64,000 nucleotides of DNA from Eledone cirrhosa (taxonomy: Eukaryota), in NCBI GenBank assembly GCA_964016885.1, contig OZ024742.1:152210001-152274000 (forward strand), read 5' to 3'. Made by a program: the position numbers and the translations under genes. Of the stretch, positions 16,735 through 24,005 are shown one piece after another. Positions within the stretch are counted from its first letter, which is position 1. The number at the start of each line of letters is the position of its first letter. Under the pieces are notes generated by a model that was given only the letters and a program-made list of their open reading frames with translations, was not told the DNA's origin and searched no databases.

Positions 16735-16954
16735 ACAATGGAATTGTGGTAAGGAACCAGATGGACCATAACGCACCAAAGTACTCAATACTTATGGTAG
16801 TAGAGTGGAAAATAGGAAAAAGTATGACCACGACGGCAGAGCTCAAGCCGTTTCGACGGCTATTTCTGGACTGCTATTTCGACGGCTATTTCTAGTCCAG
16901 AAATAGCCGTCGAAACGGCTTGAGCTCTGCCGTCGGGGTTATACTTTTTCCTAT
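16735..16954. mobile_element. Fold-back PLE 3'-end fragment containing half-hammerheads
   Basis: Arms 16812-16872 and 16894-16954 are inverted repeats. Each reads gtc-GAAA-cggc ttgagctct gccgt-C-g(g/t)gg. The tail 16740-16810 is homologous to 23930-24000. Confidence 0.65.
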
Positions 16955-17034
16955 ATATATATATATATATATATATATATATTACTCAATAGCAAGTACT
17001 CATTTCTCTCAGCTGTCAACCATATATGTATATT

Positions 17035-17948
17035 TGGGTGGCCCTTAGCAATAGGTAATTTTCCGAAAGTTAAAACTTTGCTGCTACCACACCGAAAAAT
17101 AGTTGTTTGCCCTATACCAGCTTTGCAAGTTGCCTTTCCCATTATATTTACTAGCAGAAAAACCACCCTTCGTTGTAATTGAGAACATACACAGAGATTG
17201 AAGAGAAACTGTATTACAATTTCTTCTGTAATCGGTAGAGTAAACCATGATACATTTAAAAAAGACCATATTATATAAAAACTGCATTACGGTGAAATTT
17301 TATGAAATCGGAGAAAATTAGTGATTCGATATAGTGTCCATTAAATCATAACCGGAATATTGAATTTTGAACATGTAAATAGAAGTGAATCTTGAAATAA
17401 CGATCATTATATATAAAATCACGCAGGGTTAATTTTGCCTTTCATACTTACGGGGTCAATAAAATAAAGTACCAGTAATGCACTGGGATAATTGCTGTCC
17501 TTGTGCCAAAGGTAGAAATAATTATATATAAAATCTTTTATGTTTAATCACGAGTTAGGAAATTTAGTACATAAATTACGTAATATTCATTTACTCTTTA
17601 TTCAAAGTAATCCAACTTATTTTACAAACGGGGTAAAAATATATATTCAGGACGCAGTTCCGCACTCCTCCCTTTATTATATTATGATTGTCACTTATCC
17701 TTCTAATACCAAGAATAAGTCTGAACAAGTTTTTAATTTAAGAGAAAATTATATAAGCGATAAAAATTTTTATCTGAAAAATAAAAAAAAATAAAAATGA
17801 CTTTCCGGGCAAGAACTTCAAAGTCGATGAGGGTCGCTTTGCAGTTGTCTGCTTGAGCTAAACTTTTGCATAGAATAGTGTTTTCTCAATTGGATAGGTC
17901 GGTGGGAGCTAGACTTTTAGAAAGTTGAAAAGTAAGGGCCACACTAAT
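17035..17948. mobile_element. Non-autonomous DNA transposon with short TIRs and a nested SINE fragment (17425-17525)
   Basis: ttgggtggccctta ... taagggccacactaa termini, TA-flanked. Confidence 0.55.
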
Positions 17949-18274
17949 ATTTATATATATATCGTCAGTCGATCGACTTTCGTCAAATCGGATCGAGGAA
18001 ACAATGTTTCCGTCGGTCTTTCCAATTGCTAATACTATCTATCGGTCGCAACTCGCTCTCTCTCTATATATACATATATACATATATTAATATCATATAC
18101 ACATAAACACGTATATATATAATATTACCAGAGACTGGTTTTTATTCCCTTCTGGCGTGGGAATATAAACATTTTAATCGAATGGAAAGGAAATGAGCGA
18201 CAATATGCGGAATCTTTTTAATTAATCGAAGCAAAGTGTGACATGTAGCAATTATTTATTTACTACGGAGAGCA

Positions 18275-18945
18275 GTCAATTGACAGTATCGGTAGAACGG
18301 CGGACAGAATGCCTGTGCGGTATTTAGTTAAGACTTTCTACGTTTTGAGTCTAATTATCATCGATGTTAACCTTAGCTTTCAAATTTACGGGGCTGATAA
18401 AATAAGTAAATAAAGTACCATGGCAGCACATGAGTCAATTTAAACAACATTTCCCTTCCCTTTAAATTGCTGGCATTGTACCGAAAGTAGAAACAAATGC
18501 ATTTTTACTACTGGGTTGTGGGGCGCCAGAATCCTTTGAGCATCGGAGAACACGCTTTCCAGCATTTATTTACGACCCTTTTTTATTCTCAGTTTTAAAT
18601 CCTGCGGCGATCAATTTCCGAGGTCGATAAAATAAAGTGCTAGTTAAGTACTGGGGTCGGTATCAGCTATTTTCTCTACCTACCAAATTCCAAGCATTCT
18701 GCCTAAATTAGAAACCATTGCTTAATAATTACTGGGTTGGATTGGTATAATCGATAGAGCCCCTGACAAAATAATTTGTAGCATTTTGATACGGCTTCTT
18801 ACTTTCTCAAAATTCAAATCTCACCACGGTAAATTCGCATTTAATTCTTCCAAAATCGATAAAATAAATTATCAGTCATATACTGAAGTCGATGTAATCC
18901 ACCTTCCCCTCCACCTCAAATTCTTGCCTAAATTAGAAGTCATTT
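18275..18945 (+). mobile_element. Three tandem, diverged SINE copies
   Basis: Repeated gataaaataa-gtacc / ggtcgataaaataaagtgc / atcgataaaataaattatcag cores, each followed by a ...cctaaattagaa tail. Confidence 0.6.
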
Positions 18946-18954
18946 AAAATTGTC

Positions 18955-19132
18955 TACAACAACAACAACAACAACGATGACGATGACAACGACGACTACT
19001 ACTACTACTAATACTACTACTACTAGTACTGCTGCTGCTGCTGCTGCTGCTACTACTACTACTACTACTACTACTACTACTACTACTACTACTACTACTA
19101 CTACTACTACTACTACTATTACTACTACATAC
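18955..19132. repeat. (ACA)n/(ACT)n/(GCT)n trinucleotide microsatellite
   Basis: Direct inspection. Confidence 0.95.
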
Positions 19133-19272
19133 TAATATGAAATATTCCCCGTTTGCGCTTTCCTCTTATTTCTATATATATATATATATATATTTAAAAA
19201 AAAAAAAAAATTAGAATTTGGCATTTCTCTCTAACATAGCAGATTACATAAATGTAAGAATTGGTTATAGCG

Positions 19273-22199: not shown

Positions 22200-22360
22200 T
22201 GTCGGATGCCATGCTTTGGCGCATAGAGTTACGGCCCTTGCCATTCTGAGTTCAAATCTCGCCGAGGTTAACTTTGCCATTCATCCTTACGGGGTCGATA
22301 AAATAAAGTACCAGTAATACACTGGTGAATTGCTGGCCTTGTGTCTAACGTAGAAACAGT
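22200..22360 (+). mobile_element. SINE (Meta-like family)
   Basis: gagttcaaatctcgccgaggttaactttgccattcatccttacggggtcgataaaataaagtaccag. Confidence 0.8.
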
Positions 22361-22385
22361 TATATATATATATATATATATATAT

Positions 22386-23330
22386 AGTTATATTCTAGCA
22401 ATGTCATATAGACAATAAAAACATGCACATCAGTTCAATTTCACTTCAGTTTATTATTAGTGGAATAACTAATGCATTCGAACATTACTATTGTAGTAAC
22501 TATGGCGACAGTGTGTTGACTATAGCAACGCAGTGTCGCCACCTGTGGGTAACACAAACAAATAGCGAATTACTTCCCTTATCTCGGCGTTCTCTAGAAG
22601 AAGAGACGTCAATGTAAAACTCAAGAGATTTGGTTTTCAATTCCAGTCGCCTTTGTCCTGCCACGTGGACGTACTTTGTAAAAACGCCTGTTTTGGACCA
22701 AGAAATGTTCATATCTCTTCTTGAATGTAAGAATTAAGCCATTGCCGTTTAGCTTGCAGGGTATGTCCTATGAATGTAATTATTATGTTGTGTTTCATTA
22801 AATGAATCATTGAATAAAAGATTAGCCTTGTTATCGTTAAAGCCCTTCTGATTTAATTAATAATCTTGGAGAGATGAGATGTCGTTCACACACCTGGACG
22901 ATATATCATTTTTGTAAATTGGTGACCCCGACGTGATTTGAACACTCGGTCTTCTTACTTCCAGGATTTACCACCGATGGACACTAGAAAGCAAACTGTA
23001 AAAACTGCCGTCCCAAGGGATATTGCCTTGTGGACACATGTGTTCGTTAGAGACGACGCTGTGAGACCCCCTCTCACACGGCTGTACTCTGGACCCTATC
23101 GTCTGCTTGCTCGTATAGAGAAACATTTCACAGTGGACATTAGGGGGTCCAGGGAAACTGTTTCCGTTGATCGCCTCAAACGAGCCAATCTGGACACTGA
23201 CACAGTGACACTTGAACCACAAATGCCCCTTCTTTTTCTTCGCCACGTACACTTGTTTCTTCGTCCCCCCACCACCGACATACAGAAATACGACCCGTTC
23301 AGGTCGAAGGGTGCATTGGCCCCGTAAGCT
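22386..23330 (+). mobile_element. Gypsy (CsRn1-like) LTR retrotransposon remnant: putative LTR, PBS and integrase C-terminus
   Basis: AATAAA-containing ~530-bp segment (left boundary uncertain), PBS at 22920, then VFVRDDAVRPPLTRLYSGPYRLLARIEKHFTVDIRGSRETVSVDRLKRA (GPY/F integrase tail). Confidence 0.75.
22920..22945 (+). promoter_or_regulatory. Primer-binding site complementary to the tRNA-Trp 3' end
   Basis: tggtgaccccgacgtgatttgaacac is the reverse complement of GTGTTCAAATCACGTCGGGGTCACCA, the animal tRNA-Trp 3' end as I recall it. Confidence 0.8.
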
Positions 23331-23347
23331 ATGCAGTACTATATTGT

Positions 23348-23408
23348 AGTCCAGAAATAGCCGTCGAAACGGCTTGAGATCTGCCGTCGAGGTTATACTT
23401 TTTCCCAT
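23348..23408 (+). mobile_element. Half-hammerhead PLE fragment (same family as 16894-16954)
   Basis: tagtccagaaatagccgtcGAAAcggcttgagatctgccgtcgaggttatactttttcc. Confidence 0.6.
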
Positions 23409-23806
23409 ATATATATATATATATATATATATATAGGTGTGTGGAGGGGCATGTGTGTGTGAGCGTGTGAGCGTGTGTGCGTATGTGTGTATGTGTGTGT
23501 GTAAAGTGAGGAGTAAGAAACATATAGAGAAGGAACGAGGGTGATACAGGATTGTTGAATGATAAAATGCTGGCAGGTGTGATATTTTTGAATATTTTCT
23601 TATGGCCTAACATAACAATCCCATGAATTATTTCTTATAAAACTCCTGTGGATTTAGCCTGACGCTTAAGTTACTTATAGCCAAATGCTGTATTGTTAAA
23701 CTAGATACCTTTCGGAGTTATATATATATTTGCAATAAATATACAAATGCATATACAGAAACAATTAACTAGCACAGAAGCAAACATATGTATATATATA
23801 TATATA

Positions 23807-24005
23807 TATGAAAAGATTCAGGACCCCGACGGCTGAGCTCTGGCCGTTTCGACAGCTAGATCCGAATAGTTCGGATTTAGCTGACGAAATGGCTGGAGCT
23901 CAGCCGTCGGGGTCCTGAATCTTTTCATATTACCCACTCTACTACCCGAAGTATCGAGTACTCTGATGTGTTATGGTCCACCTGGTTTTTTACCACAACC
24001 TATCT
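23807..24005. mobile_element. Fold-back PLE 3'-end fragment (~60-bp arms, 3-nt loop)
   Basis: atgaaaagattcaggaccccgacggctgagct...tccgaa tag ttcgga...agctcagccgtcggggtcctgaatcttttcat. Confidence 0.7.

Follow-up and report, generated by a model that had tools for sequence, protein, structure and literature searches.

The window analysed here is a stretch of 64,000 nucleotides (nt) from Eledone cirrhosa (GenBank assembly GCA_964016885.1, contig OZ024742.1, positions 152,210,001 to 152,274,000 of the forward strand), and it harbors three short copies (A, B and C) of a repeat that carries the 3′ half of a hammerhead ribozyme. Judged by their sequence, the three copies derive from a Hydra-clade Penelope-like retrotransposon and were inserted, 5′-truncated, into (TA)n. 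Positions within the element are numbered on the ribozyme strand with the G of GAAA as 0, which places the predicted cleavage site after +22. Copies A and C are palindromes (16813–16953 and 23807–23929), with folding z-scores of −21.6 and −19.8 against shuffles, of which 0/200 were as good. Each arm of both palindromes contains GAAA-(C/T)GGC-9nt-GCCG-TC-GGGG, with a 5-pair stem III, UC and GGGG, and retains only the last 16–19 nt of stem II. CUGANGA is absent from both arms of both palindromes, as the first-pass annotation had described, and the 5′ core strand and the 5′ strand of stem I are absent from all three copies, so these stubs are unable to fold the ribozyme alone.

Copy A begins on the minus strand with a one-sided extension of 80 nt, hereafter the tail (16733–16812; +42 to +121 of the terminal repeat), which ends at TA by (TA)n and whose sequence also leads into the 5′ untranslated region (UTR) and open reading frame (ORF) of the full-length copy L204. 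It is followed by the tailed arm (16813–16872, minus strand; −18 to +41), which comprises the last 18 nt of the stem II 3′ strand, GAAA, stem III, the UC cleavage site and the 3′ strand of stem I, then by a junction (16873–16892) and by the tail-less arm (16893–16953, plus strand; −19/−18 to +41), which also ends at TA by (TA)n. The junction is an insertion of 20 nt assembled from short duplicates of the arm beside it and is not the native stem II loop; an insertion templated from an element's own arm in this way is a pattern of polymerase-theta end-joining. Copy B (23347–23407, plus strand; −19/−18 to +41) is a solo, 5′-truncated tail-less arm followed by (TA)n, without an inverted partner. 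Its start coincides with those of the copy A arms (−18 and −19), as had been noticed earlier, and lies near those of copy C (−16 and −19). Copy C belongs to an older lineage with a different stem II and consists of a tail-less arm (23807–23866, minus strand; −16 to +43) ending in (TA)n, the mirrored part of the tailed arm (23867–23929, plus strand; −19 to +43) and a tail (23930–24007, plus strand) that ends at (TA)n, its outer end being approximate by a few bases. The extension of about 80 nt was found on just one arm of each palindrome, and (TA)n adjoins the outer ends of all three copies; neither feature had been recorded in the first-pass annotation.

Parent element and its hammerhead

Across the genome of about 3.0 billion bases, the exact 3′ half was detected in at least 50,451 arms and the core of the one-sided extension in 38,182 matches, with 0 matches for either reversed control. 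A pattern search with a wide gap obtained seven copies with CCC-CTGAGGA and a stem II of 56 nt in addition to this 3′ half; one of these copies sits behind a UTR of about 0.9 kb and a broken ORF for a reverse transcriptase (RT) and endonuclease. L204 holds a full unit, preceded by an inverted arm and running through a repeat, the ORF, the UTR and a second repeat. The ORF pieces of L204 contain RWR, DKT, YRDD, CxCX5C (read as CNC-5-C) and CxxC (read as CNLC), and RT motifs together with an endonuclease region were read in ORF pieces of L204, L107 and L068. The RT part of the parent element has 997 homologues. Pfam returned only a weak GIY-YIG match on the parent ORF (E 0.069) and no match for the RT domain, and neither Pfam nor PDB yielded anything informative for the RT part. 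The unit is 3531 nt long with a 3′ UTR of about 1.2 kb. Four full units, identical over the 181 nt searched, lie head to tail with a period of 3531 bp (G000:C1:437200345-437211118), suggesting a multimeric or circular template. All 40 scored matches are 100% identical over 181 nt, and on sequence grounds the parent family is young.

The diagnostics given for the Hydra clade are RWK and DKT motifs, a CxCX5C linker, CxxC in the endonuclease and a preference for (TA)n (Craig et al. 2021, PMC8557442). By its motifs and its insertion in (TA)n, the parent is assigned as an endonuclease-bearing Hydra-clade Penelope-like element, and the Neptune clade, which was the first guess, was dropped on these diagnostics. 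The described Hydra-clade elements resemble it in the C-terminal GIY-YIG-type endonuclease after the RT, the RWK-like, DKT, CxCX5C and CxxC motifs, the (TA)n targets, the hammerhead near the 3′ end and the inverted 5′-truncated copy with a one-sided tail. They differ in being mostly <3 kb and in having tails of 30–40 nt, against 3531 nt and 80 nt here. Those of their hammerhead motifs that were examined (PMC8557442, File S2) show canonical cores and a short stem II, while the present motif has a stem II of 54–56 nt, a 5-pair stem III with a 9-nt loop and a mostly U3-A8 core. The hallmarks of Penelope-like elements are present in L204, in the 3531-bp tandem units and in the pair classes described below, namely tandem or partial tandem repeats (pseudo-long terminal repeats, pLTRs), an inverted truncated copy and a one-sided tail. 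A non-LTR retrozyme, which consists of tandem non-coding units with a complete hammerhead in each (bioRxiv 10.64898/2026.07.22.740005), was also considered and rejected: the stubs lack a complete hammerhead, and the tandem units here encode an RT. Two other ORFs were seen at the sampled loci, a second, diverged Hydra-like ORF nested between arms (L103:4294-5649, minus strand) and a 714-amino-acid RT-endonuclease ORF of another Penelope-like type beside an insertion (L107:956-3097, minus strand).

Longer copies had been expected to carry CTGANGA upstream of stem II, and this was borne out only in part. The 5′ core is indeed present, since a degenerate-core search revealed at least 3,372 arms that reach it, about 7% of the 3′ halves. 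However, the cores of the first 100 listed long copies comprise 68 U3-A8, 30 C3-A8 and two U3-G8 with no canonical one, and canonical CTGANGA with the native stem II was found in seven copies genome-wide, some of which may be back-mutations. All five long copies read from the older lineage are U3-A8. With cores of the U3-A8 or C3-A8 type, nearly all full copies escape a search for CTGANGA. A genome search for CTGANGA no more than 36 nt from the 3′ half gave 41 matches, and among the 30 of these inspected none carried it with the native stem II, the motif being derived from the flank, the junction or another element. In four loci (L031, L038, L049 and L053), a stub adjoins one and the same foreign element directly after the CTGAGGA core of that element, the point of junction varying, and these look as if two families had fused at their ribozymes.

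The full copies show three helices around a core with the 3-8 base pair, GAAA and UH, the features that define a type I hammerhead, and their native stem II is 54–56 nt long. When 31 long copies were fitted to this fold, 90.7% of cells were paired, both-side changes were observed in six of 27 pairs, the 3-8 pair was retained in 24 copies, and 0/500 shuffles reached the fold score, which is inflated by the kinship of the sequences. RNAalifold picked a different local fold for the long copies, and Rfam gave no hammerhead match at the stubs described here or in any of three long loci. On the modelled fold, the full copies are type I hammerheads and putatively self-cleaving. The U3-A8 core preserves the 3-8 pair, whereas C3-A8 leaves these positions unpaired, yet the C3-A8 lineage is abundant, which suggests that cleavage is not needed for insertion. 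Hammerhead cleavage was likewise dispensable for insertion of another element in vitro (PMC11167929). U3-A8 core covariation is shared with Penelope-like elements of Schistosoma, which carry paired motifs on opposite strands 100–700 bp apart (Cervera and de la Pena 2014, PMC4209133). Those motifs are minimal and without stem III, whereas stem III is stable and stem II very long here, and the unpaired C3-A8 core of 30/100 listed long copies is unlike the Schistosoma U3-A8 elements.

Ends and joins of the arms

On the 3′ side the copies were observed to terminate at either of two TA sites, one at +41 (in some lineages +43) and the other at +121. Both are internal sites because full units run on past +121 into the ORF, and both are start sites since solo copies end at +41 or +121 without a partner. 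Outer ends that are fixed, and the single layout of about 199 bp in the best 30 BLAST matches, are what would be expected of a miniature inverted-repeat transposable element (MITE) or other fold-back DNA transposon with fixed ends, or of descent from a few palindromic master copies. Such an origin is highly improbable, as the two ends differ by the one-sided tail, the centres vary between copies and identical ends are seen in RT-endonuclease copies whose 5′ termini are ragged; a MITE or DNA transposon is refuted by the full-length retroelement copies. The first-pass annotation had proposed a retro origin for these MITE-looking palindromes, to be given up if they had the fixed ends and target-site duplications of a DNA transposon. 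The outer ends are fixed, but they are the two TA sites inside the terminal repeat of an RT-endonuclease element, and the retro origin stands; a target-site duplication is unreadable because the insertion lies in (TA)n.

The 5′ ends were tallied in 169 arms from pattern-seeded, random and window DNA. The pile-up within stem II that had been predicted was observed, with 113 arms ending at −12 to −23, compared with 32 at 0 to −11 and nine at −24 to −56, while 15 reach the 5′ core. Solo copies end in the same zone of −12 to −23. Counted genome-wide in one lineage, 18,307 arms reach −18, 6,084 reach −22 and 4,130 reach −25, the first drop being inflated by variant letters. This wall lies on the 3′ strand of the long stem II, past its outer 12 pairs. 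A truncation wall inside a hammerhead was not found described in the literature searched, which covered titles and the starts of abstracts and left subscription journals and Repbase mostly outside, and the available text of PMC8557442 describes no sharp 5′-end wall inside stem II for Hydra elements.

A tailed arm combined with a tail-less arm was found in 77/87 adjacent pairs of the unbiased set (L087, L101 and L124 fall outside the 77), and across all loci in 106/110 short pairs and 40/46 widely spaced pairs. The joins of the 77 pairs comprise 37 with microhomology, 26 with an insertion and 14 that are blunt. The palindrome centres vary from copy to copy, and hardly any is the native loop of stem II. 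The earlier suggestion that the palindromes fold back exactly at a stem II hairpin was not confirmed, given a native stem II of 54–56 nt and a copy A centre that is an arm-templated insertion. The arm reaching further 5′ is the tail-less one in 30 of the 77 pairs and the tailed one in 14, the two being about equal in 33. Among 16 long pairs the tail-less arm is longer in nine, often by hundreds of bases, and in seven of the 77 pairs the arms have no sequence in common.

The relationship between partner arms was also assessed by lineage letters and by length. A 12-letter lineage signature is common to both arms in 48/79 pairs against 7.5% between pairs, which suggests one template; the 79 remain from 110 short pairs after 31 were removed by an end-motif filter, in a set that includes BLAST- or pattern-chosen loci. 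In two of these pairs (L129 and L059) the arms look like two different lineages, and they look like products of two templates. Inspection by eye placed 36 of the first 100 listed long arms in long/long pairs, and among 40 further long arms it found a long partner for 17, a partner at −50 for one, a short partner for two and none for 20. Under independent stopping, a long partner would be expected for about 9%.

Origin of the palindromes and of the 5′ wall

The first-pass annotation had explained the palindromes by snap-back, in which a single complementary DNA (cDNA) halts at stem II and serves as its own template; the presence of a tail on one side only would then call for one end to be trimmed later at +41. 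Self-priming on an antisense template has indeed been put forward for the head-to-head inverted copies and junction palindromes of Penelope elements in Adineta vaga, which resemble the present copies in these traits and in an optional tail (Arkhipova et al. 2013, PMC3846280). The shared lineage letters, the roughly 33/77 near-symmetric pairs and the centres that are native stem III hairpins would all fit such self-copying. Under snap-back, however, one arm must lie wholly within its partner, and neither arm contains the other where the tail-less arm reaches further 5′ (30/77) and the tail stands only on the other arm, so that the non-nested pairs speak against it. The same applies to the insertions at 26/77 joins, to centres that are not the native stem II loop, to very unequal long pairs (−161 vs −1559; −99 vs −1251), to the 7/77 pairs lacking common sequence, to the discordant arms of L129 and L059 and to solo copies that end at +41 or +121 without any partner. 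Snap-back is thus contradicted as the general rule and improbable as an explanation of the family, though it may apply to a stem III-centred minority.

The overall reading that we favour, with a little better than an even chance, is that each palindrome represents two cDNAs that were primed separately, one from each strand at a single target cut, and then joined. Both target strands of a cut in (TA)n would each prime a cDNA at one of two fixed RNA sites, +41 for the tail-less arm and +121 for the tailed arm, and the two cDNAs, usually from the same RNA molecule, would be joined head to head by end-joining repair. This resembles L1 twin priming, in which two target strands prime on one RNA and the inverted 5′ part is joined by microhomology. 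In L1 twin priming the arms do not overlap, whereas here they usually do, so strand displacement on undegraded RNA, or two RNAs, would be needed. A Penelope-type protein, that of Poseidon from the green anole, was found in vitro to nick and extend both strands and to start at two internal RNA sites bounding the tail, and it shares the AT-rich targets (Frangieh et al. 2024, PMC11167929). Poseidon belongs to a different clade; the start sites described here are 80 nt apart at TA, matching the (TA)n target, and the available text of that paper does not address the joining of two cDNAs or their stop points. The non-nested and non-overlapping arms favour two primers over the self-priming inferred for Adineta vaga.

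For the wall itself, an RNA 5′ end at which the enzyme runs off is slightly favoured, at not quite an even chance. In the short class, the enzyme would run off the RNA 5′ end near −18 to −22, at an initiator-like TTAGT/TCAGT, so that the 'half-hammerhead' would be simply the stretch with the RNA start at one end and the two priming sites at the other. Priming of the long class would take place in the downstream repeat, on a multimeric or circular RNA. TTAGT/TCAGT is kept near −18 to −22 in all three lineages despite a differing inner helix, and a TATA-like run occurs about 30 nt upstream in two of them. An internal promoter is known in Drosophila Penelope (PMC2377424), and the Adineta vaga repeat carries a TATA and an initiator-like motif (PMC3846280). 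On the second passage through stem II, examined at 30 full-unit loci, 0/31 5′ ends fall at −12 to −23 and 26 pass.

The wall may alternatively be a roadblock in upper stem II, which is possible but carries a lower probability than run-off. Taken together with two-strand priming, this gives a somewhat doubtful alternative in which upper stem II or a bound protein halts the leading RT, the trailing enzyme queues behind it and the RNA extends further 5′. In favour of a roadblock, all three lineages have the wall at the 3′ side of the stem II inner helix, and the leading, tail-less arm reaches further more often (30 vs 14, binomial p 0.023). Two long partner arms (L226 and L227) have stem II deleted almost exactly, through skipping during copying or later loss. 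The coupling of arm lengths would be explained if both enzymes share one RNA, and the second-passage result would follow if one RNA is shared or if a circle to which cDNA has already paired serves as the template. In the commonest lineages, stem II is nevertheless weak, at about −9 kcal/mol for its 54–56 nt, and stem III and the outer 12 stem II pairs are passed first with few stops (32/169 at 0 to −11). Moreover, the wall keeps its sequence position while the inner helix differs between lineages, and no stop was observed on the second passage, with a caveat for circular templates.

Several observations weigh against two-strand priming with run-off. The RNA start is placed by low-information motifs in the sequence only, the older lineage has no TATA-like box, and the base before A(−18), which was examined as a cap-G test (n = 34), is G in 12, T in nine, C in eight and A in five. 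A single start at −18 is excluded because 37/82 arms that include A(−18) extend to −21. A stall would also be expected to produce the coupling and the second-passage result, given one shared RNA or a cDNA-paired circle. Divergence is slightly higher in pairs whose tailed arm is short (median 0.046 vs 0.034, p 0.058), so later deletions may explain some non-nested pairs. Palindromes centred on the native stem III hairpin (L130, L167, L176 and L185), with stem II pairing used in L187, add to this list, being of the kind that snap-back would produce, and those centred on stem III can be accommodated by two primers or by snap-back. Most sampled copies, finally, come from the first 90 Mb of one contig.

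Neighbouring repeats and wider meaning

The window contains at least five further hammerhead-like families in which the CTGANGA core is complete; most are followed by 50–100 nt and (TA)n, and their copies extend upstream past stem II. Their motifs lie at 6263-6307 (minus strand; 29.1 bits in Rfam, under the gathering score), 20028-20056 (plus), 24719-24751 (minus), 35720-35765 (minus), 43899-43945 (minus), 46863-46910 (minus) and 50366-50411 (plus). A head-to-head pair at 36227-36466 has a complete hammerhead-like core on both arms and its centre upstream of the core, and it represents a different family with a different stop point. An inverted repeat of about 3 kb (46810-49876; 97–99% complementary), with a hammerhead-like motif near its left end, is probably a long head-to-head insertion. 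The window also contains a separate 50-bp palindrome heading another repeat (24031-24081), a perfect inverted repeat around a (TA)n run (32204-32319) and tandem arrays of 36-bp and then 42-bp G/T-rich units that continue to the window end (53543-64000).

How head-to-head inverted Penelope copies with a one-sided tail are formed is the question that the large counts obtained here address. Inverted 5′-truncated copies, the one-sided tail, junction palindromes and (TA)n targeting were already known for Penelope-like elements (PMC3846280, PMC8557442), and the later steps of insertion are stated to be unvalidated (PMC11167929). This family differs in its U3-A8 hammerhead with a long stem II, in the sharp wall found within that ribozyme and in tallies that speak for two-strand priming rather than the self-priming put forward in 2013. 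The presence of a single arm for each start site, arms that are not nested, common lineage letters and coupled lengths point together to two primers and one RNA. For annotation, the MITE-looking palindromes of this family belong under retroelement stubs.

It may further be proposed, at low confidence, that the element RNA starts inside its own ribozyme, that the stubs are strong-stop-like cDNAs made by two enzymes on one RNA, and that a split ribozyme is possible. If this is true, an RNA 5′ end carrying only the hammerhead 3′ half but retaining the outer strand of the unusually long stem II could base-pair with the 5′ half that lies in the downstream repeat, and the split ribozyme so formed would cut unit-length RNA for circularisation. 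The tens of thousands of stubs in this genome would then preserve, in DNA, where the RNA starts and where both priming sites lie.

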